Below, piece by piece: positions 1-23,076 of a DNA stretch of 24,578 nucleotides (its first letter is position 1; each line of letters begins with the position of its first letter). A program made the translations under genes and the position numbers. The notes under the pieces were generated by a model. It was given only the letters and a program-made list of their open reading frames with translations, had not been told where the DNA came from and ran no database searches. Source of the DNA: a virus (taxonomy: Duplodnaviria; Heunggongvirae; Uroviricota; Caudoviricetes); the IMG/VR virus record IMGVR_UViG_3300028591_000102, positions 1-24,578 of that record. One strand, written 5' to 3'.

Positions 1-850
1 AATTACTCTATATATCCTAACCAGTATAAGTTGCCAGCCAACCAGCATTTCCAAAGTTATATGTAACTGGCGCTCTGCTATAAGTACCAGAGGGTGTTAT
101 TGCAATACCACTAGTATTTGTAGTAGATGTACTAACATTTAAAGTGTCAATACTTGATGTAGTAGTAACTCCACCGCCACTAAACGTTGGCGTGGCGGTG
201 GACTGAACTTCTAAATCTATTAATAGATTTTTATCTACATATTTTCCACCAGTAGCTAATGTTATAGTCGAAACTTGACTAGTAATTGATACCGGGTCCA
301 ATTTTGACATATAACCATTATAAGTACTATTAAGTGCAACTGAATTAGAATCTTGCGCGTCAGCCGCGCCGGTATATGTGGCCAATGTACCTTGAATAAG
401 TTGACCATTACTATCATATCCATAATAACCAGTTCTCATTGAAGCAGCAATAACATTAGCACTGTTAGATAAGAAAGAACTAAACGGTATCTTTGTATTA
501 TAAACATATCCAGCACTTATATATAAATATCCGCCACTCTCTAAAGTTAATATTTCATTTAATGTAGGATAACTTTGGCTCCCAGATGTTGAAAAATTTG
601 CTAATCTAATTTGCCCTGCTTCCATCCATCCTGCTTGCCAATAGGGAGTTTCCCTATAAGTAGAATTAAATATGATAGAAGTAGATGGAACATTAATTAA
701 CACGTTAATATTTTTATCAACGAATGTATTTTGGGTAGTTAAGGAGAATCCTGAGGTTAAGTACCCAGTTGATTGGTCCGCGCTTAAAATGCTGCTATCT
801 AGTGTTAAATTAGCTGCCCACGCGCCATTCGCCGCATTAAAATTGGCCAT
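1..850 (-). CDS. Ser/Thr/Gly-rich virion (tail fibre-type) protein, 3' end runs off the window
   Basis: Track ORF 17..859 ends at TAG (17-19). With TAG=Gln the frame continues (Q-D-I-Q-S-N) past position 1. AAGGAG abuts ATG 859, so ATG 850 (MANFNAANG) is the better-spaced start. Shares TFVDKNI, GGYLxxxAGY and GxxxxGTLxTY motifs with the next gene. Confidence 0.7.
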
Positions 851-879
851 TTGTTTCATCTCCTTTTATCATAAAATTA

Positions 880-2391
880 TTAGGACATAGTATAAGCACC
901 TGCATAAGTTGGAATACTGCCAGTTACAGTTGTACCATCCTCGTCTAATGCGGTATGTCCAGCTAGAATATATTCAGCATGGCCCTTAACATCAGTTCCA
1001 TCTGGAACTAGGGTAGCAGTACTGATTTTGGTCGCTGGATAATAGCCAGCAGTTAATGTTAAATAACCGCCTTCAACTAGAACTGCGGTTGTGTTTGCGG
1101 TATAATCATTACCTGGGTCAGTAGATACTGTAGAAAGAGTACCATTGTCTACCGTGCCAACAGTTGTATTAGCTGGAATATAACCTGCGGTTGCAACCGT
1201 AGTAGAAGCCCCAGAAGTACTGAATGTTGCTTTATCTAAGGAACCAATAGTAACACTAGAAGCACTACCGTCTGCGCTATCAGAATGGAACCAACCATCA
1301 CTACCAACTGTGAATGTAGTAGGGATAGTAGTTAAATCTGAGGTTACAGGGAAAGTATGGTCATTAGATTCTACACCAACTGCCATATGCTCACTAGTAA
1401 CAGTGCCAATAGCAACAGTGGAAGTTCCGCTTGCTTCGGTAACTGGAATATAAGTATCTGCAGAAGCATTAATGGTTACTGTAGTATCGGTAGAAGTATC
1501 AGTATCATAGATTGTAGGTGTACCATAACCAGCAGATTCAACCGTACCAGTAGAAGTAACTGTTGCGCTGCTTGCGGCAGACTTAACTTTTACATAAACA
1601 CCAGAGCTTGGAGCAGTTGTAACAGCCGCGCCCGCTGCGGCATCAGTAACACCACTAATGCTAATAGCATCCTTGCTAATTGCTGGAGTAACTGTACCAG
1701 AAGCACTTGCACTCACACCAATTGTAATTTTATCTAATACTTTAATTCCACTAATAGCGCCGGCATTTTTAGTACCAACAGTATCGCCGATGAAACCTTC
1801 TGTAACAACAGTTGGAGCAGCGATAATACCAGAAGCGCCAATAGTGAACTTACCTTCATTATCACCGCTATCTTGATATGTTGGATTACCTAATGTTGCA
1901 GTAGCATTTGGAGAACTTACTTCGCCAGCAGGGCCATCTTCGGCTTTTCCAATAATAATGGTTCTTGCACCATTATAACCTGCTGTAATATTAATTGTTT
2001 GTGTGTCATAATCAGGATTGATCGTAGAACCACTTGCTACGGTATTAGTACCATCATTCATAGTGGACTGTGCGATCTTACCAACAACGACACCAGTGTC
2101 ACTTACGTTTGCTGCAGAAGCTGGTGCCCAACCTGCAGTAGCGGGTGTGACAGTACCAGCAATAGTAGCGGTTAATGGATATTTTCCTTCGCTTGCGGTA
2201 CCAACCGTAACATCATCATTATTATCAGTAATAGCAAGGTCCATTGCACCAACCGCGGGAGTTGTGATTTTAATTGCAATATTCTTATCAACGAACGTAT
2301 TTTCAGTTGATAAAATACCAGTTACATCGCCAGAGTTTTCAATAGTTTTTTCAAACGCAAACGCGCTATTTTTTACTTCCATATCAGGCAT
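880..2391 (-). CDS. Thr/Gly/Ala-rich beta-strand virion protein (tail fibre-like), 503 aa
   Basis: Long open frame ending in TAA. GAGGTG RBS precedes ATG 2391 (MPDMEVK). Recurrent AGY/AGW/EGF turn motifs and a C-terminal ILAGHTAxxxxGxxVTG segment typical of phage fibre proteins. Confidence 0.7.
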   Translation of the reverse strand: MPDMEVKNSAFAFEKTIENSGDVTGILSTENTFVDKNIAIKITTPAVGAMDLAITDNNDDVTVGTASEGKYPLTATIAGTVTPATAGWAPASAANVSDTGVVVGKIAQSTMNDGTNTVASGSTINPDYDTQTINITAGYNGARTIIIGKAEDGPAGEVSSPNATATLGNPTYQDSGDNEGKFTIGASGIIAAPTVVTEGFIGDTVGTKNAGAISGIKVLDKITIGVSASASGTVTPAISKDAISISGVTDAAAGAAVTTAPSSGVYVKVKSAASSATVTSTGTVESAGYGTPTIYDTDTSTDTTVTINASADTYIPVTEASGTSTVAIGTVTSEHMAVGVESNDHTFPVTSDLTTIPTTFTVGSDGWFHSDSADGSASSVTIGSLDKATFSTSGASTTVATAGYIPANTTVGTVDNGTLSTVSTDPGNDYTANTTAVLVEGGYLTLTAGYYPATKISTATLVPDGTDVKGHAEYILAGHTALDEDGTTVTGSIPTYAGAYTMS

Positions 2392-2406
2392 AATAGTCAC
2401 CTCTGA

Positions 2407-2739
2407 TTAAATTATTGTGCCAGTATAAACTGGGACGGTTACATCTTCTGTTCCATCAAAAACATAAGCATTATTAGCGCCAAAAGTTAGTGTATGCTGT
2501 AAAGAGTTGGCACTAATGCTATTTACGTCTACTCCTCCTACAGTACTAGCATCTATAAAGGGTAGATTGACAACGGTGGTTAGACCATCGCCAATCTTAA
2601 TCCTTGAATATGTATGCGTCGAATCAGGAGAGTAGACAATTAATTCGCCTAAAAGAGGAACGAATGATGAATGAGCGTTCCAATTAGTTTCAGAGTCAAT
2701 CTTTAACTAAACACGCGAAAGAATAGTATTAGCACTCAT
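2407..2739 (-). CDS. Small tail protein with Mtd/hyaluronidase N-terminal-like domain (110 aa; TAG=Gln at codon 11)
   Basis: Absent from the track. GGAGGAG RBS; MSANTILSRV[TAG]LKIDSETNW...PLLGELIVY...RIKIGDG...LPF; ends in TAA at 2407-2409. Confidence 0.8.
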
Positions 2740-2760
2740 TTTCATCTCCTCCCATTATAC

Positions 2761-4230
2761 TTAAATTACTGTAGATGCTGTTCCACAATTGAGTACTAAG
2801 ATAGTTCCAGAAGTCTGGTCTAAATCAGCAATGTCTCCAGTTTTTGCGATACGAGCGAACTCTAATTTCTTTGTAGTTGAATCAATTGTAATATCTTCAT
2901 ATCCGGTACCAGCAGCATCGGCCACACGAGCGCCCTTAACAGTACCAATGTTTGTTAGGTCAATTGTTAATTCAACATTCTTATTAGCATCAACAGTTTG
3001 TTCTACACCATTTAAAGTAATGGATTCGATTGTATTAACTTGTGCTCCGGCCGCGATACCACTTAATTTAGTACCTTCGGCTTCTGTCATTAGGCGGTCA
3101 GTGCCGTTTTGCGCAACGTATGTACTTGCTGCAGTAGTACTATCTAATTTTCCATTGATTTCAGTTTGTAAAGCTGAAACTAAATCTTGCTTACGGATAC
3201 TACCTTTAACAGCGTAGTCTCCTTCGGTGCCCAATTCTTGCCAGTTTGAACCATTATAAATCCATTCTGTATTACCATAGATAACAACATCACCAGAAAC
3301 TGGATTAATATAACTCTTACCGGTAATGGTTGGAGCGCCAGAGAAAGAAGAACTCATTGCATCTGTAGTAAAACCAATGAAATGCATTGCGCCAGCGATT
3401 CCTTCAACCGCGCTGTCTACGTAATCTTTAATCGCTCCGGCAGTAACTAATGCATCATCATCATTAATAGATATCTGAACTTCTTTTGTTGTGGGAGTAT
3501 TTGTTCCATTACCGACTATAACATGTCCCACAGGAATAGTATTTAAGCCAGTACCACCTCGTGAAACTCCTAAAGTTCCACTAGTAATATCATCTGCTCC
3601 GATAAAATCTCTAGAAACATTAATTGTACCATTATTTTGTGATACTGCGGTTACAAATTTATGACTGATTGCGCTATCATTGACACTTAAACTAGCCAAT
3701 CTTTGAGTAACAGTATTATAGATTTGATCATATAATGATGTTTCAATATCAGCCCATTCTTCTAATTCACCTAAACGAGTGTCCATACTTTGTAAATTAA
3801 TTGTATAAGTAGTATCACGGGTCCAAGTGTCTTCATCTGTTGCTTTAGACTCTAAATAATAAGTATTTAAATCATTTGTGGTCGTACCTTTAACAATACG
3901 ATACTCTTTTCCTCCATTACCGAGGTAAGATTGAACATATGTATCTAGTCCGCCAATTTCATTTGCGTTATAAGATGGTTTCGTTGAAGCTTTTGCCCAA
4001 TTATAAACATCTCCCGCGACCGCTTGAATCCAAGGAAGCTGCGAGAAAGTTTTTAAACCATCGCCAACTTTAATACCAATTGCTGGTGGGGTTAAGCCAC
4101 TATCAGAAGCACTATTTGGTACTTCAGCAATGGCAACTTCGCCCTTCTTTAAAATAAACGAACTTTGGTTCCAATTACTTAAAGTATCATATTTTAACTA
4201 AATACGACCTAAAATTGTGTTCTCAGCCAT
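2761..4230 (-). CDS. Tail fibre-like protein with Mtd/hyaluronidase N-terminal-like domain (489 aa; TAG=Gln at codon 11)
   Basis: GGAGG RBS; MAENTILGRI[TAG]LKYDTLSNW...LKKGEVAI...IKVGDG...LPW, open in frame into track ORF 2761..3786. Fibre motifs GTLGVSRGGTG, AIKDYVD, KLSGIAAGAQVN. TAA stop. Confidence 0.85.
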
Positions 4231-4245
4231 TTTTCATTCCTCCTA

Positions 4246-4902
4246 TTACGTGGCATTCCCACTATAAATTGTAAAGCTATCTCCATCTGGAACATATAAA
4301 GTTGAGGTGGATACACGATTAATAGTCATGAATCCATTTTGAGAAACACTAATATCAGCAGAAGAGCGAACACCGCCCAATTCTGAAGCCGTGGCCGGCA
4401 TTAATGTCATACCCCCACCTATCTTTTCCAAATGATTATCAATTAACATATATTCTTTATATATGTTATTTTCTTTAATTAAATAAATTGTATTTTCATC
4501 AGCATCTTCATCTGCTGGTAAGGTATTTACAACCTTTCTTTTTAATACTCCAATTGTTGCAATTGCATTATCAACATATTGTTTATTAGCGATTTCCTCT
4601 GGAAGAGTTGGATTATTTGTAATAAATAATTGTTCAATAGTATCACCAGATTTGATAAATGAATTAAGTAACGATTCAAATGCATCATTAAATGTAATTT
4701 CATCATCTTTATAATCAAAATATTTGGCATCTAATTTATTTAAATAGCGCAAATTATTCCATCTTGTTTGTCCATCGCCAATTTTTAATAGTAAAGTATC
4801 AGTTTCTAAGCCGTATTCGCCAGACATTAATATTGGATTATATTCTTTCCAAGTATTTGCACTATCACGACGAATCTAAATCCTATCTTTTACATTAGCC
4901 AT
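4246..4902 (-). CDS. Tail protein with Mtd/hyaluronidase N-terminal-like domain (218 aa; TAG=Gln at codon 9)
   Basis: MANVKDRI[TAG]IRRDSANTW..NPILMSGEYGLETDTLLLKIGDG...L.Y, in frame with track ORF 4246..4827. Also carries ANKQYVD and PATASELGGV fibre motifs. The start overlaps the end of the upstream gene. Confidence 0.85.
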
Positions 4903-5179
4903 CTGCCGCACCCCCACCATCAACACTGATGCCTTCCATTATATCGGCGGAAATTGGCACATATCCATTCTCTTCGCCGTCCCAACAATATAGTGTATTA
5001 TTATCTCTATTAAAATATAATACATTATATTTACCAACACTTGGAAAATCTTTTATATTATTAAATATAAGTTTTCCTATAGTTCCTGAATTGAAATCTC
5101 CACAACAACCATTGCCAGGAATTGGAATTGGGGGTAGGGATTCATAAATTAAATCACGAGTTCGTGTACGCTGTGACAT
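4895..5179 (-). CDS. Small hypothetical phage structural protein (94 aa)
   Basis: Tightly coupled to both neighbours. FPxxGxxNxLYxxxxxNxLYxWDG motif seen in phage tail proteins. TAA stop. Confidence 0.7.
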   Translation of the reverse strand: MSQRTRTRDLIYESLPPIPIPGNGCCGDFNSGTIGKLIFNNIKDFPSVGKYNVLYFNRDNNTLYCWDGEENGYVPISADIMEGISVDGGGAADG

Positions 5180-5180
5180 C

Positions 5181-5537
5181 TTAAACCACCCCTGTTACTA
5201 TAAACTTTGGTAATTTATTGAAAGAGCCATAGTATGAATCTACCACCGAGCCGGTAAGTGGAAAATCATCCTCATCTAATAGCGGATTATGATAAATTTT
5301 AACATCCCAGTAATAGGTTCGAGGCTCTAATTCACTAGTATCTTGACTTTCAAAAGAGAAAGATAACATATCTTCTACAGCAGGAGTGGCTTTTTCTATA
5401 ATTTTTTGTTTATAAAGTTTATCATAGACTGTTAATACCGCTACTGCATTAGTACATCCTGCCGCGATATTTGGTAGGATCAGCATTCCAGTATCGCCCT
5501 TATTTATCATGATACGTTTACCAATGAGTCGTAACAT
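5181..5537 (-). CDS. BppU-N-like (Ig-type) baseplate/tail adaptor protein (118 aa)
   Basis: GGAGGGG RBS. IxIxKGDT...FxSQDTxxLxxxTYYWDVKI pattern typical of baseplate upper protein N-terminal-like domains. Confidence 0.6.
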   Translation of the reverse strand: MLRLIGKRIMINKGDTGMLILPNIAAGCTNAVAVLTVYDKLYKQKIIEKATPAVEDMLSFSFESQDTSELEPRTYYWDVKIYHNPLLDEDDFPLTGSVVDSYYGSFNKLPKFIVTGVV

Positions 5538-5548
5538 AATACCCCTCC

Positions 5549-6106
5549 TTAAAAAATATTTTTTATTTTCTTTTTATATTTATTACATAATTTAGATTGC
5601 CATTCCATAATAGTTGGCATATCATAATTTATTGCTTCTAGTTCAATTAATTTTTTATGTGCATCAGATAGCTCTTTTGACACATTTTTAATATATTTTT
5701 CTAGTTCTAGCGCGGCTGATATCTCGCTAATATTTGTAAGTTCAAAATACATAGACTAATACAATTTCTTTGTACTTTCTTCCCAATTAATCCATTTTAT
5801 TATAATATCTTTTATCGCGGAGCGTCTAGTATTAATATCAACATCTTGTGACGTATATTTAAACCAAGTAGTAGGAATTATTTCCTACTATGGAATATTT
5901 TCAATTTGTAGTAATTTAAAATAATGTGTATGATAATAATGTAATAAATCATTACACCCTTTTTCTTCTTCAAAATAATGATATATATGACATTTATTAT
6001 AGCCATATAATCCTAAAAAATCGTATGCTTTAGCTAATTCGTTATGAAATCTAGTCCCTTCGACCATGTGGCCAATTATTTTTATAAATATTTCTTCAAT
6101 AGTCAT
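5549..6106 (-). CDS. Ferritin-like four-helix-bundle protein (185 aa; 3 TAG=Gln)
   Basis: Track ORFs 5888..6106 and 5549..5752 are in the same frame, separated only by TAG TAG (5885-5890) and TAG (5756-5758). Helical, with HxxEG..FH, HxxHxxEE and WxxWEExTKxLY metal-ligand-like spacing. Confidence 0.7.
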
Positions 6107-6110
6107 ATAT

Positions 6111-6143
6111 AAAAATCTTCTAGGCGTATAAACGCCTAGAAGA
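6111..6143 (-). terminator. Intrinsic terminator
   Basis: 12-bp perfect stem TCTTCTAGGCGT/ACGCCTAGAAGA (6116-6127/6132-6143), followed by T5 on the minus strand, just after the stop at 6150. Confidence 0.75.
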
Positions 6144-6149
6144 TACCTA

Positions 6150-6563
6150 TTAATGAATCTTAGTTATTACAACATTAATGTGTGCATCGCTTACAGCGGT
6201 ATCACCATTAATAAATTGTAATATTGTTGGACTAGTTAAACAATTACAATTACAATTGTTTTGCATTACTCTAACGAATGTTTTAAAGCTAAAGTTATCC
6301 GATGCGGTAACGGCTGTACCAGTAAAACCGGTAATAGCTTGTGGTTGTAAAACTCCATTAACTTGAAGCTAGACTGTAACATCAGTAGCCGCATCCGGAG
6401 TGGCAAAGCCATCCATTTCTACTAAATATACACCCTATTTATTTAATTGAATTGTCGCTGGCGCACTAAGAGTTTCGCCGCAGCCCTTATCCATTACAAT
6501 ATTATTAAAAGGGAAAGCTGCACCCGCGGCAACTTCTAAATTAGAAGAATAAACTTGTAGCAT
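6150..6563 (-). CDS. Beta-sandwich protein, BclA C-terminal/C1q-like (137 aa; 2 TAG=Gln)
   Basis: Absent from the track. GGAGGG RBS; MLQVYSSNLEVAAGAAFPFNN...IQLNK[TAG]GVYLVEMDG...VTV[TAG]LQVNGVLQP...CNCNC...NVVITKIH; TAA. Fold call is by pattern only. Confidence 0.7.
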
Positions 6564-6585
6564 ATTAATTCCCTCCTGCATAAAT

Positions 6586-6612
6586 AAAAAGAGGGGCGCA
6601 TTAAGCGCCCCT
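6586..6612 (-). terminator. Intrinsic terminator-like hairpin
   Basis: Stem AGGGGCGC/GCGCCCCT (6592-6599/6605-6612), with a T-run downstream on the minus strand. Confidence 0.65.
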
Positions 6613-6644
6613 TAATATGTTATGATGCACTTAATACATTCTGA

Positions 6645-7283
6645 TTACATATTACATCCACCGCAGAAAGGTGATGCACCAGCATTATAAGTTAATCCAC
6701 TTGGATACCTTACCACACCAGCAAGTTGATTTTGTAATTCAAGATAATTAATACGATTTTGCATGGCTTCCATTTTATCCTGCATCATCATATCTTTAAC
6801 ACTTTGAATCTGTGCTGTAAAGTTTGCATTTGTGGCGGCATCACGCATTGCTGCGTCATAGTTATTCTACATTAACTGACGAACAACTCCACCAAAACAT
6901 TCATTCTAATTAGCTAATAAGCCCGCTTGTCCAACAGCTAGACTTGCGACATCTCTCTGTAACTCGCCATACTTATCGCCAACATAATTAACTACATCGT
7001 GATATACCTGATTAGTTGCTTGCATACCTGTCATAGAGGCAGTATTTACTGCAGCTAAAATATCGCGAGTTTGTGCTTGTAGATTTTGTGTGTCAAAACC
7101 ATTTTGAACTTGATCTCGGGTAGCATATTGTTCATAACCACGGCCATTACCGCCCCAGTTAAAACCGCCGCCCATCATTGCTAAGATAGCGAAAAGCCAA
7201 ATCATTCCGCCCCAGCCGTTTCCACCCATGCCGCCATCATTTAATAAGGCAACATCAGAAGCTGATAAACCATTTTCTCCCAT
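6645..7283 (-). CDS. Gly-rich single-TM plus coiled-coil hypothetical phage protein (212 aa; 2 TAG=Gln)
   Basis: Track ORFs 6906..7283 and 6645..6848 join in frame through TAG 6906-6908 and 6867-6869. AGGAGG RBS. GGMGGNGWGG, then hydrophobic IWLFAILAMM, then GGGFNWGG; Gln/Asn-rich helix; Cys-containing tail. Confidence 0.85.
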
Positions 7284-7311
7284 ATTCGATTCCTCCTAAA
7301 ATTGAGAAATA

Positions 7312-7344
7312 TTTGAGGATAATAATTGCGCGCATCTCCTCAAA
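7312..7344 (-). promoter_or_regulatory. 5' leader hairpin with palindromic loop (TGCGCGCA)
   Basis: TTTGAGGA/TCCTCAAA stem (7312-7319/7337-7344) enclosing the self-complementary 8-mer at 7327-7334, about 15 nt upstream of the RBS of the 7283 gene. Confidence 0.45.
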
Positions 7345-7393
7345 AATGAGTAGGAAGATTATTGATTATATAAGATAAATTATTTTAATGAGT

Positions 7394-7433
7394 AAAAAAA
7401 AATAAGTGCCGAAATTAATCGGCACTTATTTTT
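7394..7433. terminator. Strong, possibly bidirectional intrinsic terminator
   Basis: 15-bp inverted repeat AAAAATAAGTGCCGA/TCGGCACTTATTTTT (7398-7412/7419-7433), with T9 on the minus strand. Confidence 0.85.
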
Positions 7434-7507
7434 GCACGTACTATAGTTGTAGCGCATCGTTCAACCACCGTCTTTCACTCAATGGTTCATTTTCACCACC
7501 AACTATA
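7394..7507 (-). ncRNA. Candidate structured small RNA (about 110 nt)
   Basis: Lies between a perfect sigma-A promoter and a terminator. Folds into a rod with outer stem 7501-7507/7442-7448 (extendable with G-U pairs) and inner stem 7480-7487/7463-7470. Confidence 0.55.
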
Positions 7508-7512
7508 ATAGT

Positions 7513-7541
7513 ATTATAACATGAAATTAGAAAGTTGTCAA
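7513..7541 (-). promoter_or_regulatory. Sigma-70/sigma-A consensus promoter
   Basis: TTGACA (7541-7536), 17 nt, TATAAT (7518-7513), with extended -10 TGn. Confidence 0.85.
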
Positions 7542-7549
7542 ATAATAAA

Positions 7550-7840
7550 TCATTTTCCCAACTAACTAATTAACCAATTTAAATCTACCCCATTTGCGCG
7601 CGCCATCTGTCCAGCGAGGGTCTAAAGATTTCCTGCTTGAACTAGTTTGGAAAGTTGTGGATTTTGCTAAATCAATGTTGAAAATACTAATTGCGGATTT
7701 TGACTCGTCTAAATCATTTTCATAAGTTGACGAGTATCCTCAATTGATTGCTCAAGTTGTTGCGACGGTATCTGTTGCTATTGATGCTGTTGTCGTGGCA
7801 TTATTGGTTCGTTTCGCATTTGACTTATTAGACTTGGCAT
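7550..7840 (-). CDS. Gln-rich small helical protein with QNPQ repeats (96 aa; 5 TAG=Gln)
   Basis: Absent from the track. GGAGGAG RBS; MPSLISQMR...RQQHQ[TAG]QQIP...MI[TAG]TSQNPQ...LI[TAG]QNPQL...MARANGVDL; TGA stop. Confidence 0.8.
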
Positions 7841-8177
7841 TTATCCACTCCTCCACAGCTGTTAATCGTGCAGCTAAATCGTTAGTATCTATTGGCGCTG
7901 GTTTGACACGAGGTTTTATATCAAAATCCTATACCATGCGATTTCCCATATTATCTGTTCTAATCCACCAAATAATATCTTCATTTGCATCTGGTAAGTA
8001 TATCTCACTATTTGATCCCATTGGGAATTGCCAAGCTGCATTCTCTCCATGAATTGGCTCTGCCCTATATATAGGCAGGGGTTGATTAAATACCCGAGGC
8101 TATATATAATTATATGGGCTGAACTATGCTTGGCCCGTTGTCATATTATTCTATTGTGGTTGATTCCAACTATTCAT
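7752..8177 (-). CDS. Hypothetical phage protein (141 aa; 4 TAG=Gln)
   Basis: Absent from the track. GGAGG RBS; N/Q/P-rich N-terminus, then IHGENAAWQFPMGSNSEIYLPD...IWWIRTDNMG and a C-terminal helix LAARLTAVEEWI; TGA stop. Overlaps the downstream gene by 89 nt. Confidence 0.75.
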
Positions 8178-8322
8178 CTGTCGGTTCCTCCCCATACTTC
8201 CTGCCGCATTTTGGGCAATATTCACATTCTCTTAAATTATTTGCCGCATCAAAGAAATAAAGAATTTCTTTTTCCTGTTTTTTCTTAGCGTCCCAACAAT
8301 AAAAACATCCAAATTCTTCCAT
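8146..8322 (-). CDS. Small zinc-ribbon protein (58 aa with TAG=Gln)
   Basis: GAGG RBS; CFYC...CEYCPKCGRK. TAG at 8170-8172, then TAA at 8146-8148. Confidence 0.65.
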
Positions 8323-8330
8323 AATTTGCC

Positions 8331-8606
8331 TCACTTTATGATATTTTCAATTAACTTTAAAGTTTCCTATAAAGAATTGTAGATTTTTTGTAAGTCATTT
8401 CGCGTAATTTCTTTTTTAAGACTTACAACTAAAAATTTATTCATAACATAACCGGTTTGACCAGCATAAGTTACTTTAGACCAATTAGCATCTAATTGAG
8501 AAGTTTCCAACTATGTTCCATAAGGTATTCGCGCCAGAACCTTCCCGTTTGGGGAAGGCTCCGCGCGCAAGTTTAATGTACCTTTATTATCCGTTCTAAC
8601 ATACAT
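8331..8606 (-). CDS. Stand-alone bacterial SH3b-domain protein with C-terminal helix (91 aa; 2 TAG=Gln)
   Basis: GGAGG RBS and TAATG coupling to the holin; LNLRAEPSPNGKVLARIPYGT[TAG]L...WSKVTYAGQTGYVMNKFL; TGA stop. Confidence 0.85.
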
Positions 8607-8965: not shown

Positions 8966-8988
8966 AAATATTACCTCCTTTTTCTTTT

Positions 8989-9018
8989 ATTATATCATAT
9001 TTGATATTAAGTTGTCAA
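8989..9018 (-). promoter_or_regulatory. Sigma-A-type promoter upstream of the holin
   Basis: TTGACA (9018-9013), 18 nt, TATAAT (8994-8989), with extended -10 TGn. Confidence 0.7.
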
Positions 9019-9025
9019 ATATTTA

Positions 9026-10232: not shown

Positions 10233-10247
10233 AAGCATCCCTCCTTA

Positions 10248-10556: not shown

Positions 10557-10578
10557 TCAAATGACCTCCATATAAGGT

Positions 10579-11844: not shown

Positions 11845-14800
11845 TTAAATTGAGAACCCTGGCAAGAGGGCACGAGAATCCGCCGCAGCATCCACCGTTG
11901 TAGTGTTATATACAATTTCGCCCTTGGAAGACACTAGATAGAACCTACGTGCAACACGATTACCATCATAATATGCTGCCGTATTGGTTCCAGAATAATA
12001 ACTTCTAGTGGCTGTATAAGAGCTTTGTAACCACATACCACGTTTAGTAGACGGCTCTGCTGGCGAATCAATTAGTGTGATATCTGATGTGCTCTAATTT
12101 AATCTAATCTGCGGTTCTACTGAACGGCCAAAAATACTGTAAGTTGATATATACATATATGCAACATTATTACTAGTGTTGTACCAAACATCTCCTTCCT
12201 ATAATGAACCAGCCCATAGACTTGGTTCATATTCTACTGTACCATCAGTATTTCTAGTTAATACTTCAATTGCCGCACCAGATGGAATTGTTAACGGGTT
12301 AATTCCAGCTGATACAAAAATACGTGTATCTGGGCCGACAACATGCTCATTAAAGAACCAACGCTAAGCATTAACCATTTTTGCCGCAGTTTTATCTTTA
12401 ACGAATTGACTATCAACATAATTGTAAACTTCGTATCCAGTAACACTCCAGGATAGATTAGATTCTTCATCTAATTGTGATACTGGTGCTGCGGTATCAG
12501 ATAATTCTTTAAAGCTTGGAATATAAACATAATCTCTTACAGAATTACTAATAGATCTAGTGAATTGTGCAGCCGTTCCTTCAAGAATCATGGTTGGAAT
12601 AGGAGTATTAATAATAATTGATTGATATGCAAGCGGAAAAGCTTTATAAATCATATTATTACAATATCTTCTTACAGTTGTATATGTCCAACCAATTTTA
12701 CTATCATTAATTCCATCTGTAGTCCAGCATAAATCACTATTTTTACCATTATGATACGGTATTAATCTATCTCCTAATGGAGCTGCCGCGTAAAGATTAA
12801 TTTGTGCATTATTCCCTGTAAGTACTAAAGAATTTAATCCACTTTCAGAATCATAAATTCTGTTATATCCAAGTATTCTAAAAGGAACAGTTTCATGTGG
12901 CCAGCTAGCTAATAATTTGCATTCTCTATCTCCTAAATCTATAGGCCAATACTTAGCATAATAAAGTATTGCAGTAGGAATTGATAGAGGAACGAATTGA
13001 TTATTACTATTATTAATACCACCCAATAATAGCTAATTATTAACTTGATTTGCTGTTGCTTCACCAATGGCTGGATAATCAAAATTCTAGTCTCCATAAG
13101 AAGTAATTTCAGTCTATCGAATATTATAATATCTAAATCCTTCATATAAAGCATTATTATTACCAACAACAGATGGGCCTAAGGTTGTATTATATGTATA
13201 AATATATAATTTCTTAGGAGTATTACCATTATGACGTAATACTAACATATTACGATAGCTTAAGAATTGACTGTGATCACTTGTTTGATAAATATAATCT
13301 ATTACATATGTTTGTGTGCCCCATGTAACCGTAATCGGAATAGGAGCTGTACTATTACTATTATTAATAATAGAAACTTTAAAACCATTAGTAGAATCAT
13401 TCTAAGTATCATAACAAGATAGAAGAACTAATTCTTTTTGCTGTCTAACAAATTGACTAGAGTTCATAATATATTTAAAGTCAATTGCAATTGTAAAGCT
13501 ACTATTAATATCGCTTAATGGATATAATCCCGTTGAAATATAATTAGAAGGAGACTAGAGTAAATATGGTTTCTAATTTACATTAGCTAGCATATCAATT
13601 GTTGTAATCTCATCTTCATTATATTCTGGGTCATAACCCATTTGAATATCAATTGTATCGGTACCTTTATGACTATTTAATAAATTATACTTAGTTGTTT
13701 CAGACGCCTAAGAAATAGCATATAATTGAGCCGCATTTAGGCTACTAAAATCATCAATAGAAGTTAAATCTTTTGAAGACTCCCATAATGAATAAATATT
13801 AGTATTTTTTAAAATTGGTATGGAAGGCATATCCCAACCTTTAAATACATAATAGTTATTAACATTTACAGAACCAACTTTAGTAACTACTTTCTTTTTC
13901 TTTTCAAAATTGAAAGTCCAATCAGCAGAAGAACTTAGAGTATTATATGCAACCTAAGCAGTATGTAATACTGTAGTTCTATCATAATCATACCAGTTAA
14001 CTGTGTATGTTCTTGCTTCACTACGTCCATATACTGCTACAAATTCAACATTATTAATACCAACAGTATCAGATAATGTGAGTGGGTCACCAGTATCTCT
14101 GAATTTCCAACCACTATATTGCTTATAATGTGGTTCCGGATTGTTGAAATCTTCACCATAAATAGTAAACTCACCAAACTTTAAGATATGAGAAGTAGTT
14201 TCAATATCTTCTGGCATATCAATATATGGTAGATTAGTGTCAGGATTTATATCATATACTGGATCAATAAACGGTACATTGGATTGACTATAGTAAGTAT
14301 ATAATAATTCTTCTACAGTTTCTCCATCTTCCTCATAAATCTTATAATACTTAACACTATACTTTGGAATCTCATTCTCTGGAATTACATCAAAGTCAAT
14401 CTTATTATCAAATTCTTCTTTGTAATGGTCGCATTCGACTTCACTCCAGTTACCATTAACCTTAATAGTACCAGATAAAATTAATTTCTATACGGGATTA
14501 CCATCTACATCATAGACAACGCCAAGTTCATTCTTTCTTTCAACAAAAATCTCCAAATCGGAAATATCATTGATATAAGAAGTACGTAAATCTTGTAAAT
14601 ACAAGGTATCTACATGAGTAAGGGCTTTTTTCGCAACATCTAACCAGTTTAATTCTGATAGATAGTCACTATCCGTAATAGTTAAATTAATTAAGTTAGA
14701 GTAATCTGTTTCTCCAGTACTCTTATTAATTACAGAGAAATCCGTTAATAATCTTGCAGATTTTAGAGATAAAGTATTAACGGTAGAAGGTAAGTGTAAA

Positions 14801-17800
14801 GTTGTAATGCTAGTATAATCTGGCAACTTAATATTAGCTAGTGCAGTACCACTTGCCTCTATTATTTTTAAATTATTGCTTTCACTTAGATCAATAACAC
14901 CATTTAAGTTATCACAATTCTTAATATTTAATTCTTCAAGAATAGGCATATTAGGTAATATTGTAAGTTGCTTTAGATTAGTATTATGATATGTTTCATT
15001 CTCAGTACCTAAATCTAATTTCTTTAAGTGCGCTGCACTACTAAAGATATTCGCGCCGATATAGAATGATGCTAAGTTACTTAATGATTGTATATAACTA
15101 CCAGCATAAATATAAATACGAGTTTCATTCATATTGGCTGTACAATCGATTGTATATTCTTCACCAGCAACCGCGCGAACAGGACTACGTAAGTTACCAT
15201 TACCTACAGCAACGTTAATATACATATCTTGATATGGAACAATCTTTAAGTGATAATCTGGTGTTACACCTTCAATCCATTTACTAGAAATAAATGAAGT
15301 ATCACTATTAGCAATAATACATTTGTATAATTTACGATTATTTTCTGAACCATAGAATACGAAATCTCCAACTTCAAATGGTCTATAAGTAGAAACATCA
15401 TTAACTTTTTGTTCATAACCAAGAGAGTTCCATAAAGGAGCATCTGGGCTGTAACAAACCATTTCAATTGTATTACTGCGAACGTTATTAAGCATATATT
15501 TACTACCAAAATAGATTGCCTAATCGCGCACCCACTGACGACGCTGATACTTCTTACGACCTTGCATCATTTCTTTTAAGAAACGTGTATTCTGTTTTGT
15601 ATTACCATCAGTATCAGCAAGTTTACAATTGTCATAAACCTTACCAGTGAATGTTCTGATATATTTACGCTCAATATCGAGACGCCACATTTCTTCTGGG
15701 AAACAATTTTGGAATTTATCAAACTCATTAATTAAATTAGTTGCATCAAAACAAGCTGCTTCATTAACACGATTGAAGATATCCGCAATTTCCTCAGTAA
15801 AACTACTGCTTAAACGACGCCATAAAATAGAACCCGCGCCATTAAAAACATAACCCGATGTTGGTACTCCAGCAATACGATAATCAGTATCTTCTTTACC
15901 ATATGGGAATATTAATTCACCATTATTATCGATACCTGCCGCAGTATCCATATCATATGCCCATAAATCGAATGCATATTCTGTATAATAAGTCTTCTCA
16001 GGATCAATTTCAGTATCTTTAGTACGTACATATTCACCATTAATTAATTCATCATAAACATGAATTAATGCAGGAGAAGTGTGATGTACTTGACGGTGTG
16101 TTCCAGTTTTACCAAAATGCCAGAAGCAGTTCTTCGCACGGTTATCCATCATGGTATAGAAATGAGTGAAAGCATAAAAATATTCAACCGCTTCAGGTAC
16201 ACACCATTCGGCTAACTGGGTTTTAAACTCTTCATTGCTTGCGGTAATTATCCATTCATAGAAAGCTTCAACAACGCTACGATTGATTTCAAATTGAGCG
16301 TCGTCATCACCGCCGGAAGTCTTATTAATTAAATCACCATCACGGTAATCGCCCTTACAGGCATAACGGAACTCAAATGAATGCTTACCATCAAATGGGT
16401 CACCGGACAACATTCTATGTCTATAGTTTACATATACTTGCCCATTAGGTAGAATGTATTTAGTCGTTGCATTTTCTACGTCTGTACCGTCTTCATACTT
16501 AGCGATTTCGTTTTCTACACGATAATCATGGTCAATTTCTTTTTCAGTAGGTTCACGAGTTGGCCACCATTCCGTCTCTGGATCAATATCCCAAATATAA
16601 TTCATAGAATTAATCTTACTATCATCTTCTTCTATGATACGTTCTCCATTACTAATATAAACGCCAGACTAAAATTGAGAGTTACTAGTGTTGTTATCAG
16701 AGATTTCAACAGTAAACTCATTCATATCATCTGGATCATATGCGCGAGTATAATCAGTTTTCTTGGAATCACCAATATTACCTAAAGCATAGAAGTGCCA
16801 TTCGGTATCATTAAACTCTAAGTGTTTAGTATAATTACCATTATCATCTTGAGTATCATCAGTTTCACGTAAGAATAGAATAGCAGGAACAAATTCCATG
16901 TCATTCTTAATACGATGGTCACGTTTATAAGCGGGAGATTCGTAAACGTAAGATAAGAAATCATTGAATCTTTTTTGGAATAGTGCATTGTTTACGTTTT
17001 CGGAAGATGCTACATTAACCTTTAAGTTAAAATAGTTATTTGGAATAGAAGTTGGAGTTAAGGAAACCTTACATTCATCGCCCATCCAGTCTAAACATTC
17101 TTCCGGTTCTGCTCCAATCGTAGGAGCCCAGCTTTTAGTTGTAGGATTAAATACAGAATTTTCTGCGCCTTTATATAATTTTGATACATATCCTTCATAT
17201 CCAGTAATATTCTTCTTTTTCGTAGGCGCATGAGTACCATCACACATAAATAAAAAGTCAACATTACGTGAGGATTGACCATAATTGTCAGATGTCGTTC
17301 CTTGACCAGCATGATAACCATTCATAAATAGCCAGTTATCTTCATCAGGACGCCCTGGATATTCTGTACCGCCTTCTGCATGAATACAACGTAAAGAAGA
17401 TTTAACAAACGTTTTCTTACTCTTAGTAAAAGTTGGACACTCTAACATTAAGATTTTAACATTAGGCAACTTCTTTGCTAATTGTTCTGGGTTAAGTACC
17501 GCATTACCAACTTTATATGGTGTAAATTGTTGACCTTCTGGTTTTGTTGAATCATAATAAATACTATTACGCTCATAACGATTTACTTTTTCAGTAATGT
17601 TCTTACCATCAGCAATAAAGTTACGTAAAATCTCACTAGTAGTTAGAGATTTATTGTAAATACGGAACTTATAAATATATACATCACAATCTGGAGAACC
17701 AATACGAATAACCTATTCGTTTCCATCTGCATGATATAATATTTCATCAGTATTATATGCATAAGCTTTGCTTGGAACACCATCTTCATAAGACATGACG

Positions 17801-20800
17801 AAGTCTTCGTTTAACCCATGCTTATTAATGTTAATATCTAACTCAATCTTATCTTCCTCAGAATATGGGAAATATAGATAAGAGTTAGTAGAAGCCTCTT
17901 CTCCATTCTATTGAGCTAGTTTTTCCGCCGCATCCGCCGCGCTTGTCTTTAACCAGCCTTGATGCGCACTTAACTGAATACCAATAGGAACATCGCTGTT
18001 TGTAGTTGGATTACCAACATTACTAAACCAAACAGCACTAGCATCACGAACTGCTGAAACTTTGAATGTAATTTTCATTTCAACGCCATTATTAAAAACA
18101 GAACTACTAATAACTGGATTTGTTGGATTACTATTGTCAATTGATTGTTTAAACATCTTGTAATCAAATTCAGCATACGTTCCGGCTTTAATAACAAAAC
18201 ATTTACCGTCTATATCTGTTTTATAACCGCCGCCACTTGGGTCATCCGACCAGTTAAAGTTATCAGATACGCTCATATGATATGTTTGATTATCATATGT
18301 CCAGGTTGGAAGTCTATTAGCAGAATTATTAGATAAAGTAGACGGGTCAAAATTAATAACCGCACCAGATACCTGTGCGATATCAATTTTCATTTCAGTA
18401 ACAGTTACATTAAATGTTAACGTTGTATTATCAACTTTAATAGTTAAAGTTTTTTCACCAAATGTATCAAAAGCATATGAAAGTAAACCTTCAGTACCCA
18501 CTGTAACTGTATCTATTAGTGTTTCTCCATCATAATATTCTACAGTAGAATTAGAAGAGTTATGATTATAAATGGAATATGGAATATTTATTTCAGCATA
18601 CTGTTGCGCTGTAATATTTTTTCCACGATAAGGAGATGCAATAATTACCGGTGTTGCATCATTAACATCATACCAAATATAATCACGAGTAATCGCAGTA
18701 GTTGGCGGCAATTGCTAACCATTTAATGTACCAATTAAATACATACTAACAGTATGTGCACCATGAGATTGTGCTGGAATAACATATTCTTGAGGAGAAC
18801 CAGAAATAGCAGAACCCAATGGTTGTGTGCCAACAATATTTCCATCTACTGTAACATATAGCGTCTTATCAATCGCACCATATGGAGTATATGGGAATTG
18901 AAGTGTATTGCCCGCCTCAATTAACATACTATCTGGAGCATCGGAAGTTAATCTTAATTCTTTTATTTCTACGGTCCAAGAACGCGGAATATTTTGTCCA
19001 TTAGTATTAACCGTTAGATTGAATGTCTATAAACCTAAGCGGCAATATTCAGTAACATCAATTTCATAGAAACCTTCAGGGCGTGGGGCATCAGGCCATA
19101 CACCGGTGGTAATAGCCTAATCACTCGCGCCACTATTCAAGTTCCCGCTTGCAATAATGGTACTATTATTATATTTTAAAGTATAGGTACCTTCATGAGA
19201 TTCGCCAGTAGCATCTACAGAAGAATAGAAGAAACGTAAGTATATATGCTCTTCATTTTGAACCGTCACTGTTGTTGCAGGAGTAATACGAACTACACGG
19301 ATAATCGCATCGCTTCCACCACCACCGCCTTTGGGTAATTCAACCTGGCCAACTGGTACCATTAATTCATCATCAATATTCTCTTGTGCATTTGATGTGC
19401 CGTAATCAAACTCGTATAAATTTAGATAATAAACATCTTCATCTGTTTCGTGCCAGGTTTGAGTAGCTTCATCAAATTCTCTTCCTTTACCAAGCACTCT
19501 ACTAATATTATAACGTTTGAGATTATTTGGGTTTACACCAATAAGCACTGGCGTAAGTTGTTCTTCAATTTCAATAAATCTATAGTGTAAATAACCACTC
19601 TCATTATTACCAACAAAATAATCAGTGTTAATATCCGGCTCTTCAATGCTTTCTAATGATGCCGCGAACGCACCGGAAGAACTACCATTACCGGAACCAC
19701 CGCCACCGCTAATTAATTCCCATTTGTTATTAATATATTTCCAATAATAATATTTATCACCATTTTTAATTAAATAGTCAATTTCAGGCTGAGCATCATT
19801 TTTTAATGGAATACCGTTTTCATCAAATTCAATATCGTCAAGAATAACGGTGCTAGTTCCGTTCGAGGCCGCAACATCATTAATTGCCTACTACAATGCT
19901 GTAAATCGTGCGCTTAAAGTTGTGGCACCATCTACATGAGTATTATTAATTTCAGTTTCAATATTATCTAATCTGGAACTATGGCCATCTTGCTATAACC
20001 CAATGGCAGTTCCAATTGTATTAACAGTATTCGAAAGCGTAGTATCACTTTGAATATCATTAATAGATTGTTCTATTGCATCAAAACGATCATCCAAGGT
20101 ACCGCTACCATTAGCCGTATCAATTTCAGATTCTAATGCTTCAATACGTTGGGTTAAGCCATTTGTGTCATTATTATCTACTGCCACATGATCAATAGCG
20201 GTTTCAAGCGCACTAATCTACTCAGATAAACCAAGCGTTGGATCTTCATTTGTTGCCGCATGAGAGATATTATACTCAATATTATGAATATAATCAGGAA
20301 GATTATTAATTTCAGTATCTTTATATACGTCGCCAATTTCTTTAATAATCTAATCAATTCGGCTATTATCTAAAGAACCGATTTCTTCTTCTAATTTTCC
20401 TAATCTACTAGCAAGAGAACTAGAATCACTAGTATCAATATTATTTAAACGAGAAATAATAGAATCTGCTATTTCAGTACTATCAATTGCATTTAATCTA
20501 TCTATTAATTTAGAATTAGCAGTAATATGTGTGGCATCAATTTCTGACTTTAATGCTCTTACAATTACCGTAATACTATCTGCTGAAGTGATATCATTAA
20601 AGTTAGATGGATATAAATCATCTAAAATAGTTGATATTTTACTTTCTGTCTAGCCTAAGCGCCAGTTCATAGTATTTGCGGTATTTGGATTATCAATGGC
20701 TTCAAAACGTTTAAGTAATGTATCACCGCCAGCAATTCCTGAGCGATGGGCTGCATTGATTTCCATAATACTACTTTCAGATGTACTAAAACGAGCATTC

Positions 20801-21162
20801 AAATCATCATAGTATGGTTCGTGTTCTCTTGTGGCCTATTTAATCATAGACCAGGCAGCGTTTCCATTTGCCCCGGCTTCAGTTAAACTACCAATATTTC
20901 TATTAGCGGTATCAATTGCTTGATTTAACTAATAAATATTATATTTTATACTACCGGTTGTACTAATATCGCCAATATCACTTTTTAAACCATCAATCAT
21001 TAAGTCAATATCAATATTTTGATTTAATGCTTCCATGACACCCAACTCAATATTATTTACCTTGTCTGCAGTTATGGGTTCATCCGCGGACCACATGTGT
21101 GGACTAGTATACGCCGCATCTGAGCCAGTTATTGCCCCAGGCCAAGTATATTTAGTTGCCAT
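11845..21162 (-). CDS. Giant multidomain virion/tail protein (3105 aa; about 27 TAG=Gln): coiled coil, Ig-like, LamG-like, CotH-like kinase, LRR, B-repeat-like, C-terminal DUF6273/lectin-like
   Basis: Eleven track ORFs from 11845..12036 to 20929..21183 share one frame. Reading the gaps codon by codon found only TAG, never TAA or TGA. AAAGGAGGT RBS before ATG 21162. Motifs: IGSPDCDVYIYKFRIYNKSL, MMDNRAKN, YDMDTAAGIDNNG, LEELNIKNCDNL, YVFKGWD, WLQS...PGFSI. Confidence 0.9.
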
Positions 21163-21301: not shown

Positions 21302-21724
21302 TTATTTAAACTTTTCTTCTACATATCCATCTTCGGTAGTGTAGAAGATTTTTTTGATATTTAATTCTCTAAGAAGCGCCATGCACGCAGGGCACGGACG
21401 CGAAGAAGCCAAAGTTCCATCTTTATATTCACGATAAAGATATATATGAACTTTAGTCCAATCTATTGAATCTCCAAACTTCCAGCGCAATTTCTGAATA
21501 AGGCTTACTTCCGCATGACACTTGCTTGGAGTATCCGCATCCTTATATCGGTAAATATTATATCGCGCCTGCAACGGCGACGTTTTATTGCTATTTGCCG
21601 CAGTTGCAACCACACTTCCTTTATACACGGCTGCCGCGCCAATCATAGGCGAAAAACGATGCGAACCAGTATAGGTGGCATTGTAGGATGCTTGATGTGC
21701 AAACTTAAAATATCTTTCCTTCAT
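21302..21724 (-). CDS. Zn-dependent cytidine/dCMP deaminase-superfamily protein (140 aa)
   Basis: IGAAAV...SN, CHAE, SRPCPACM and IKKIFYT motifs (HxE...PCxxC). No TAG. Confidence 0.85.
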   Translation of the reverse strand: MKERYFKFAHQASYNATYTGSHRFSPMIGAAAVYKGSVVATAANSNKTSPLQARYNIYRYKDADTPSKCHAEVSLIQKLRWKFGDSIDWTKVHIYLYREYKDGTLASSRPCPACMALLRELNIKKIFYTTEDGYVEEKFK

Positions 21725-22002
21725 TATTTAGTCTCCAACACATCTATAATTACTTCGGATTTACCGCCAGAATTGCTAAAAGCTACACGCTCTACATTAT
21801 TATCTGTGGCATACTTTAACATATCTTCAATAATACAAAGTTTTACTTGATGATCATTTTCACCAGCAATAGAAAATAATTTTAAAGAATTATCTATATC
21901 GTTTTTACGTTCTCCAAAATATACTTTGTATTCACCGAAAGAAGTCGATACATCATACCAAGTTTTTAACATACCATAACTCAACAATTCATCACTGCTC
22001 AT
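21724..22002 (-). CDS. Hypothetical protein (92 aa)
   Basis: ATGA and TAATG coupling to its neighbours, GGAG RBS. Confidence 0.7.
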   Translation of the reverse strand: MSSDELLSYGMLKTWYDVSTSFGEYKVYFGERKNDIDNSLKLFSIAGENDHQVKLCIIEDMLKYATDNNVERVAFSNSGGKSEVIIDVLETK

Positions 22003-22334
22003 TTTCTTGTCTCCAATATATCTAATACTATTTGATAATAATCGTTTTCAAACTTTATAAAAATATCTACATTATTTTCAAAACTATTAATAAATCCTTT
22101 AAGAAAATTAGTTGCCGCAGAGAAATTAAAGCAGTTATCATCATTTAGTTCATGAAATATTTTACTTGAATCATATTCCATAGGAATAAAGTTAATTTCA
22201 TATAAAATACCATCAAATTCAAAATTTTTTAGAACTCGGTCAAGAAATAGTCGCATGAGTTGCATACCGTCGATGTTATAGCAATCTACGGTTTTACCTG
22301 TTTTTATCTTTTCCACTATTTCAGAATATTTCAT
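21999..22334 (-). CDS. Hypothetical protein (111 aa)
   Basis: AAAGGA RBS before ATG 22334 (MKYSEIVEK). The track's longer start at 22445 would run through the promoter. TGA stop. Confidence 0.7.
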   Translation of the reverse strand: MKYSEIVEKIKTGKTVDCYNIDGMQLMRLFLDRVLKNFEFDGILYEINFIPMEYDSSKIFHELNDDNCFNFSAATNFLKGFINSFENNVDIFIKFENDYYQIVLDILETRK

Positions 22335-22358
22335 ACTCTCATTCCTTTCTATAATAAA

Positions 22359-22387
22359 ATTATAAATCAAATTATATAATTTGTCAA
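22359..22387 (-). promoter_or_regulatory. Sigma-A consensus promoter
   Basis: TTGACA (22387-22382), 17 nt, TATAAT (22364-22359). Confidence 0.8.
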
Positions 22388-22422
22388 TTATTAATTTTAC
22401 ATATAATTTTGAGGTGAGGTCT

Positions 22423-23076
22423 ATGAAAATTAAAATTAAAATCACAACTAATGAAAATATGAAATACTACAACTGTGCTAAAGATACTATTAAAGAAATA
22501 GATTTTGAAGAATATGTTGCTGTTGTAGTAGCTAGCGAAATAGGTAATGCACCGGAAGAAGCATTAAAAGCATAGGCTATTGCCTCTCGAACGTATGCTT
22601 GCGCGCAAGGAGTACTTAGTGGTAAAGTAATAAGTGATAATGCTAGTAAAGCACAAGCCTACCGGGCGCCACGTATATCATATAAAAATGCTAAGGCTGC
22701 GGCTAAAGCAACAGAAGGACAGGTATTAATGTATGGTGGTAAATATGCTTCAACCTATTTCTGTCATTCTAATGGCGGCCGCACTTATTCATCTGAAGAA
22801 GTATGGGGCGGTGTAAGAAATTATTTAGTTTCACGTAAAGACCCTTGGACCATAGAAAAAAAGAATGGGCACGGTGTAGGAATGTCGCAGGTCGGCGCAA
22901 TTAATGCCGCAAAATAGGGGGTAGGATTTTAGGAAATTTTATCTTTCTATTATCCTAAAACCATATTATCTAAAATTAAAATAGAATAGGAAGAAGAAGA
23001 CTCGGTTATGCGGGTTTTAGAAGATATTAAAGTCCGTATAGAAAATATATTAAAAGAAATAGAGGAAGCACTGTAA
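22423..23076 (+). CDS. spoIID: SpoIID/LytB-family lytic transglycosylase, compact form (217 aa; 4 TAG=Gln)
   Basis: GAGGTGAGGT RBS; EEYVAVVVASEI, EALKA[TAG]AIASRTYA, QAY, ATEGQVLMY, SNGGRT, VWGG..YLVS..DPW, GHGVGMSQVGA, EILSFYYP; TAA stop. Confidence 0.92.

Follow-up and report, generated by a model that had tools for sequence, protein, structure and literature searches.

Recoding of TAG from stop to glutamine (Gln) in the late genes of gut phages whose hosts use the standard code has been described by Borges et al. (10.1101/2021.08.26.457843) and Yutin et al. (PMC7886860), and in phAss-1 by Babkin et al. (PMC10607447). For crAss-like phages it has been proven by proteomics (Peters et al., PMC9523058), and 8.75% of rumen jumbo phages have been reported to use alternative codes overall (PMC13037316). 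We analyzed the first 24,578 bases (the window, that is, the whole stretch studied) of IMGVR_UViG_3300028591_000102, a linear virus record of 152,578 bases with a low GC content (about 34.7–36%). It is the contig of a large siphovirus-like phage of the sheep gut, truncated at 79% completeness. TAG codons in its tail, lysis, and other late genes stand where relatives have Gln. Very probably a phage-encoded tRNA-CUA translates them as Gln late in infection; this tRNA is predicted for the stretch that was not assembled, and a host enzyme likely charges it. The phage is thus a member of the known code-15 phages, whose type of recoding was already established, and it shows each of their defining features that could be examined. 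Like the code-15 gut phages of the literature (Agate, Sapphire, Jade, Lak, and crAss-like phages), it combines TAG = Gln, recoded modules for structure and lysis scattered across the genome, standard-code replication genes, close relatives with the standard code, low GC, and a suppressor tRNA (here in relatives). Unlike those of Borges et al., no RF2 or synthetase gene was found in the nine genomes searched here, and its clade also holds phages that read TAG as glutamate (Glu), a word that does not occur in the accessible text of Borges et al.

Relatives were found by terminase (72 loci at 68–88% identity), and all eight contigs longer than 160 kb were taken in full (G001–G008; the phage itself is G000). 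Among described phages, phAss-1 (OQ749652; proposed Phassvirus, PMC10607447) is similar in its siphovirus type, DNA Pol III alpha, recoded terminase and tape measure genes, and tRNA cluster with Sup-CTA, and in the lack of a synthetase. The suppressor of G001, the closest complete relative, and the tRNA-TERM of phAss-1 share 90% identity over 70 nt. phAss-1 differs in habitat (human versus ruminant gut), in genome size (133–138 kb versus 163–190 kb in the relatives of G000), and in its terminase and capsid proteins, which are 33% and 36% identical to those of G000; judged by these amino-acid identities, G000 falls outside Phassvirus, which is delimited by >80% nucleotide identity plus synteny with phAss-1. 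Large siphoviruses of Bacillota taken to use the standard code (Geobacillus virus E3, Enterococcus EF1/H1, Bacillus PBC2, Kirov, and Tsamsa) share homologous terminases (30–35% identity), major capsid proteins, and tail tubes, all distant; the accessible part of PMC10607447 reports no recoding for EF1.

Reading TAG as sense raised the cover of the window by open reading frames (ORFs) of at least 100 aa from 0.529 under code 11 to 0.921, compared with 0.574 when TGA and 0.805 when TAA was read. For ORFs of at least 150 aa, the values were 0.358, 0.779, 0.398, and 0.547, respectively, and over the whole contig (at least 100 aa) cover rose from 57.4% to 89.0%, versus 63.4% with TGA read. Since removing TAA also inflates cover, ORF cover alone is a weaker test than it appears. 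A simple gene caller using codons and ribosome sites gave 153 genes in G000, with 419 in-frame TAGs spread over 50 of them; the window holds 71 TAGs in 18 genes (66 in 17 called genes and five in an additional ORF at 7550–7840), and seven genes within 1–23,076 have none. The first-pass annotation of this DNA had put the number of TAG-bearing genes in 1–23,076 at about 19, which we correct to 18, and had expected a gain in coding density, which was obtained. Its description of genes that tile the window once TAG is ignored, none of the complete ones needing TAG as a stop, also held: called genes cover 95.5% of the window with mostly short gaps or overlaps, and every complete gene ends in TAA or TGA. 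Homologues aligned at least 10 residues past the first TAG in 15 of the 17 called TAG-bearing genes, the exceptions being 8146–8322 and the cut gene at 2–850, and the holin (PF09682), NlpC/P60 with SH3, SpoIID (PF08486), and DUF4376 domains of the window all require read-through. Annotation is where the result matters most for this genome, since code 11 breaks up its terminase, portal, tape measure, holin, and hydrolase genes.

Alignments with relatives support Gln as the residue, since TAG in G000 aligns with Gln as CAA and CAG do. At 747 well-aligned positions against the eight relatives, TAG faced Gln 256 times, TAG 172, Glu 62, Lys 48, Asn 33, and Ser 32, and the substitution profile of Gln fitted best, by 714 log units (the positions are not independent). 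Against the standard-code relative G006 alone, Gln stood opposite 35 of 67 TAG, 194 of 375 CAA/CAG, and 40 of 935 GAA/GAG codons; tblastn scored TAG as Q in this comparison, a possible source of alignment bias, but the same procedure still gave Glu for G007 and G008. Single-site variation opposite TAG is expected for Gln. Among 174 testable TAG sites (those with at least two homologous matches), 173 were sense-like; the single stop-like match was antisense to the SpoIID-like gene, and this systematic test missed the site at 146169 considered below. The Gln assignment made in the first-pass annotation therefore stands, and so do the sites on which it leaned: two solved SpoIID chains have the Q of EALKAQA where TAG stands at 22573–22575, and QQHQ*QQ is present in 7550–7840. 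In its three tail paralogues, which are neighboring genes, TAG was found at codons 11, 11, and 9 (RVQ, RIQ, and RIQ), as claimed; two of the three match Mtd_N, and one alone scores above the cut-off.

The TAGs are real. In the likely source run, contigs identical to G000 over long pieces cover most of 1–12,000, and in a sheep-gut RNA library of another study, whose material may be DNA, contigs were identical across seven TAG sites. This check rested on assembled contigs rather than raw reads, which leaves a little room for assembly or sequencing errors, or for nonsense mutations in a decaying phage; these identities, the spread of TAG over 50 of the 153 called genes, the same-codon TAGs common to relatives, and the lack of any TAA or TGA inside genes of 3,105 and 5,755 codons make such an origin vanishingly improbable. 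In a third run, a related strain has CAG in place of TAG at 9103; 22 runs with a share below 0.2 were not used as habitat evidence. It is also very improbable that TAG stands for another amino acid in G000, most plausibly Glu as in three relatives. The same terminase clade does hold the Glu readers G007, G008, and L071, and Glu is the second commonest residue opposite TAG in G000, but Gln outnumbers it fourfold in the eight-relative alignment (256 versus 62) and 35 to 12 against G006, conserved columns gave Gln 18 times and Glu never, and G000 is placed in a 42-row group of Gln readers only (SH-aLRT 99, quick tree).

Use of TAG as a Gln codon followed gene class. TAG accounted for 66 of the 229 Gln codons in the called late genes of the window, 22 of 68 in packaging genes, and 240 of 469 in neck and tail genes, versus 2 of 311 in the replication block (NrdD, Pol III alpha, RecJ-like, DnaB, and gyrase; two TAGs in 9,086 codons; p = 5e-25 against the window late genes) and 0 of 72 in small genes at 35–55 kb. 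The TAG in DnaB lies three codons before the gene end and is ambiguous. Five putative high-copy genes, which include homologues of annotated major capsid and tail tube genes, had TAG at 1 of 52 Gln codons versus 262 of 537 in the other structural genes (p = 3e-13). The Gln-type relatives behaved alike: TAG made up 2 of 412 Gln codons in capsid genes (31 loci), 0 of 231 in the upstream neighbor (36 loci), and 2 of 168 in the tail tube (22 loci), with 31–57% in nine neighboring genes and 6–7% in two others. In standard-code relatives these three genes are the most CAG-rich (78–100%), so that mutation from CAG alone would predict the opposite of avoidance; the pattern points to selection against an inefficiently read codon. 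Recoding is thus confined to late, low-copy genes, which refines the earlier interpretation. Outside the window, TAG probably still ends an early DUF5662 gene (G000 146134–146772; L008:11134-11772), judging from the TAG at 146169, which aligns with the stop (TGA or TAA) of three of four homologues; the next ATG comes one base after it. The near-absence of TAG in replication, capsid, and tail-tube genes, together with this one probable early TAG stop, fits a code-11 host and a late switch. The base after TAG showed a mild lack of T (18% versus 28% after CAA; no significance test).

The suppressor tRNA is predicted from relatives. Across the whole G000 contig, ARAGORN at default thresholds returned no tRNA and Rfam no match of any kind, and ARAGORN at lowered thresholds gave noise (one match at ps90; 61 at ps80, where the single CUA match lay inside the tail-tube gene). 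The contig is truncated: a 7,756-base contig of the run covers 1–4095 and extends 3,661 nt beyond base 1, and the right end of G000 breaks within a conserved element whose neighbor in relatives is the tRNA cluster. The near-complete relatives G001–G008 have 14–30 tRNA genes each. The seven recoded ones (G001–G005, G007, and G008), which gain 25–39 points of cover when TAG is read, carry one tRNA-CUA each, and the standard-code G006 (cover 0.80 versus 0.84) carries none. In G001–G005 this gene sits between homologues of the last and first genes of G000, in the stretch missing from G000, and in G007 and G008 it lies elsewhere; same-strand tRNA genes were found upstream of the last-gene homologue in 13 of the 16 loci having such a homologue. 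As to the proposal of the first-pass annotation that a suppressor tRNA is encoded elsewhere in the genome, the 152.6-kb contig has none, but it is truncated, and all five Gln-type near-complete relatives have a tRNA-CUA in the stretch missing here. The scan it had suggested for tRNA-CUA, GlnRS, and release factor genes found none in the truncated contig.

No match to release factors (PF00472) or class Ic Glu/Gln synthetases (PF00749) was obtained in any of the nine genomes searched, and from the lack of the latter we infer that charging is by the host, with the route (GlnRS or GluRS/GatCAB) depending on that host. In the Gln-type suppressors the first pair is U1-A72 or A1·C72, and U35 and G73 are present. 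These features are in line with the Gln identity described in PMC9976931, which lists as determinants the discriminator, U35, and the pairs 1-72 and 3-70, with U1-A72 as the amidotransferase signal. As for the host, the G000 terminase matched 121 phage records, led by those of Bacillus (69), Lactococcus (22), Enterococcus (7), and Clostridioides (5), at 30–36% identity among the best 25 of the 121. It also matched four contigs of metagenome-assembled genomes (MAGs) binned as Acutalibacteraceae (2), Bacillota, and Bacilli, which is weak evidence; we infer a code-11 member of Bacillota.

Under the proposed scheme, early and replication genes, being free of TAG, would be translated immediately by the code-11 host ribosome, and this early set would include the products of the tRNA cluster and the replication machinery. 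With the suppressor building up, host RF1 would lose the competition at UAG, and ribosomes would then translate late genes to their ends. Suppression probably stays incomplete: low-copy late genes would tolerate TAG at 30–57% of Gln codons, and incomplete suppression would explain why the bulk proteins (major capsid, its upstream neighbor, and tail tube) are kept TAG-free. Several points weigh against this scheme. The suppressor of G000 itself was not recovered, the host pointers (terminase relatives and four MAG bins) reach Bacillota level only, the scoring of TAG as Q can bias the comparison with G006, and at some TAG sites most relatives show a residue other than Gln, as at 6437, which corresponds to Arg codons in seven of seven. 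The 3-70 pair of E. coli Gln identity is G-C. The suppressors of the relatives have C3-G70 at this pair, a Gln determinant in E. coli (PMC9976931), and a suppressor was found in only 40% of TAG-recoded genomes (Borges et al., 10.1101/2021.08.26.457843).

Another way to read the same distribution is that TAG is not merely tolerated but selected as a timer, late genes and above all lysis genes being enriched so that RF1 blocks them until the switch, as in the model of Borges et al. Early genes are indeed almost without TAG; the lysis genes (holin, NlpC/P60, SH3, and SpoIID-like) are all recoded, with TAG at 13 of 28 Gln codons, above the rest of the window (p = 0.043, uncorrected); and a sigma-factor-like gene before the terminase bears TAG in 45 of 45 Gln-type loci. 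The lysis genes, however, showed no enrichment over other structural genes (13/28 versus 262/537, p = 0.85), and the capsid and tail-tube genes are ungated. Placement of TAG toward the 5' end, hinted at by the three tail genes, was rejected as a gating device in G000 (34 observed versus 30.2 expected, p = 0.17), with p of about 0.03 in two of five relatives, and the first Gln codon of G000 genes was not TAG above chance (p = 0.27). We accordingly regard a selected timer as rather unlikely. Reading by the host, through its own TAG = Gln code or a host suppressor tRNA, would make a phage tRNA unnecessary; it would suit a 152.6-kb contig without tRNA, and host suppressors have been suggested for recoded phages lacking one (PMC7886860 and PMC13037316). 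It is nonetheless quite improbable, given that seven of seven recoded relatives have their own tRNA-CUA, that a recoded host leaves the mere two TAGs in 9,086 replication codons and the probable stop at 146169 unexplained, and that the accessible part of a 2026 survey gives pyrrolysine in archaea as the sole case of UAG reassigned in prokaryotes (PMC13695967). Late reading by a phage tRNA-CUA remains our preferred explanation. Two features could bear on its timing. The sigma-factor-like gene (G000 57329–58675; L002:16329-17675; phrog_5767, E = 7e-11), just upstream of the packaging genes and TAG-bearing also in three of three Glu-type loci, could couple the code switch with late transcription. 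In G004 (L164:17710-17978) and G003 (L175:729-991), the anticodon loop of the tRNA-CUA is split by a similar insert of about 175 bases, missed by default scans, and its splicing could time the switch.

The picture at the level of the family is more interesting than G000 itself. TAG is read as Gln at 57 of the 72 related loci and as Glu at three, in-frame TAG is absent from 11 (standard), and one is unclear. The Glu readers are G007 (L140-L148), G008 (L177-L185), and L071: in comparison with G006, TAG was opposite Glu 124 times and Gln 10 times over 203 positions in G007, and 34 and 4 times, respectively, over 63 positions in G008, while the conserved columns of L071 gave Glu 18 and Gln 2. The TAG of G000, unlike theirs, does not align with Glu. 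A quick terminase tree, from which four of 73 rows (<400 aligned residues) were excluded and for which the careful search is incomplete, showed seven code changes; well-supported branches force one to Gln, two to standard, and one to Glu, and several origins of each code are not forced beyond these. Although their terminases are 68–88% identical, these phages read TAG in three ways, and each way goes with the presence and kind of a single tRNA gene, so that the charging of suppressors without a phage synthetase becomes a directly testable question. For annotation, this means that table 15 places the wrong residue in some recoded phages.

In all five Gln-type suppressors an extra hairpin is present, whose loop equals that of the Gln(CUG) anticodon. 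Suppressor tRNAs with such a second CUG/UUG hairpin lie at L111:5318-5410, L123:15157-15242, L157:5546-5630, L164:17710-17978, and L175:729-991, and also among L186-L367. A scan for the CUA arm alone yielded 120 loci from 28 of the 64 parts of the collection, from which 94 distinct tRNA-like sequences were parsed, 40 of them with an extra region of 14–26 bases. CUG or UUG was centered in a 7-base loop with at least two closing pairs in 33 of these 40, versus a mean of 2.4 and a maximum of 8 in 2,000 shuffles, with counts inflated by relatedness among the sequences. The second stem pair varies (C-G, G-C, U-A, or A-U), and the 7-base loop is not the minimum-energy fold in G001, G002, and G005. 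The tRNA-CUA of G007 and G008 instead has a Glu-like D arm, a short variable loop, and U11-A24 and U13·G22 pairs, both of which are named Glu determinants in PMC9976931. From these tRNA sequences we tentatively propose, at somewhat less than even odds, that in this family of ruminant-gut siphoviruses the reading of TAG as stop, Gln, or Glu would be set solely by the tRNA-CUA of the phage with host charging, the CUG/UUG hairpin of the Gln suppressors, that predicted for G000 among them, acting as a recognition decoy for the glutamine-charging system of the host and the Glu suppressors using a tRNA-Glu-like D arm. If so, the genetic code would be a swappable single-gene trait.

Apart from the anticodon, the CUA arm of the relatives equals the arm of the G002 tRNA-Trp. 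An amber suppressor derived from tRNA-Trp is known as su7/supU. The suppressors of the relatives resemble it in the Trp-type CUA arm, U35, and G73 and differ from it in the extra CUG/UUG-loop hairpin, with the Glu type having the same arm on a Glu-like body; the tRNA-Trp-derived suppressor is charged with Gln (cited in PMC9976931). In the literature searched, which included few subscription journals and left outside its scope the supplements of Borges et al. that may list other reassignments, we found no paper on TAG = Glu in phages, the second hairpin, or capsid avoidance, nor are these described in the accessible parts of PMC5389517, PMC11122139, and PMC13695967. Some CUA-arm matches did not parse as ordinary tRNAs, namely L187, L192, L224, and L267, and L208, L271, L282, and L305; one group of these has a non-cloverleaf context in common, and another has extra regions of 28–35 bases. 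One contig with a two-arm suppressor also holds a second, atypical CUA tRNA call (L387:7528-7610) where sister phages have tRNA-Gln(UUG).

Genes of the window lie on the minus strand unless stated otherwise. The gene cut at the contig start (2–850) has two TAGs (at 19 and 10) with putative read-through, and a search for homologues of this first gene gave none in viral contigs; the second gene matched five short, distant metagenome contigs. The tail genes comprise one with a weak Mtd_N-like start (2407–2739; TAG at codon 11, 2709), one with a paralogous N-terminus (2761–4230; codon 11, 4200), and a tail-fiber-type Mtd_N (PF18454) gene (4246–4902; codon 9, 4878). Conserved genes with no assigned function follow at 5549–6106 (three TAGs), 6150–6563 (two), 6645–7283 (Gln-rich; two), and 7752–8177 (four), the last sharing an 89-nt overlap with the poly-Gln ORF at 7550–7840 (five TAGs), downstream of it and preceded by a GGAGG ribosome site; another lies at 10248–10556 (one TAG). 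This small-gene block (5549–8177 plus 10248–10556) has no confident Pfam family and is kept in most or all of the eight relatives, including the standard-code one. A small CxxC protein (8146–8322) has one TAG seven codons before its end, spanned by four of seven homologues. The lysis block comprises an SH3 (PF08239) protein (8331–8606; two TAGs), the holin (8606–8965; two TAGs, with CAA, CAG, or TAG at the homologous codons in four of four aligned relatives), the NlpC/P60 plus SH3 cell-wall hydrolase (9026–9802; five TAGs, including the site that is CAG in one relative strain), and a membrane protein (9783–10232; three TAGs). A DUF4376 tail-fiber-associated gene lies at 11048–11791 (five TAGs), and the gene of a likely virion protein of 3,105 aa (11845–21162) has 27 TAGs and is broken into pieces under code 11; in this protein, the N-terminal part is fibritin-like, and a DUF6273 match lies close to the end. 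Three TAG-free genes, one deaminase-like and two without assigned function (21302–22334), are compatible with the standard code. The short SpoIID/LytB-like gene (22423–23076, plus strand; four TAGs including the one in EALKAQA) stands by itself on the other strand, is without the middle portion of bacterial SpoIID, and occurs in four of the eight relatives. Small TAG-free genes were called at the window end (23096–24566).

The conserved element at the right end of the contig (G000 152379–152578; L008:17379-17578, minus strand) is GC-rich, has a terminator at its end, and is 83–92% identical in relatives; it has no Rfam match, is separate from ROOL, and is possibly a structured RNA without a name so far. 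In relatives, the region missing from G000 contains ROOL RNA, tmRNA, and cow-rumen-3 and cow-rumen-4 RNAs (L382:8351-8940, L372:4494-5126, L379:8699-9293 and 1310-1662, and L111:1062-1157 and 5788-5855), with a cow-rumen-4 RNA about 380 bases upstream of the G001 suppressor. Theta ribozymes (PMC10879173) were not detected beside the G001 and G007 suppressors by Rfam, no dedicated model being run. Outside the structural blocks, TAG was found in genes for helicase-like (21 TAGs), RuvC-like (5), GIY-YIG fusion (13), PhoH (4), ClpP (1), and 938-aa (18) proteins, at G000 31964–33616, 96489–97624, 98981–100015, 131114–132965, and 136245–139061, and TAG content may mark such non-structural genes as late. 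At G000 29091–31338, four tandem Gp10_C (PF21939) paralogues are each recoded.

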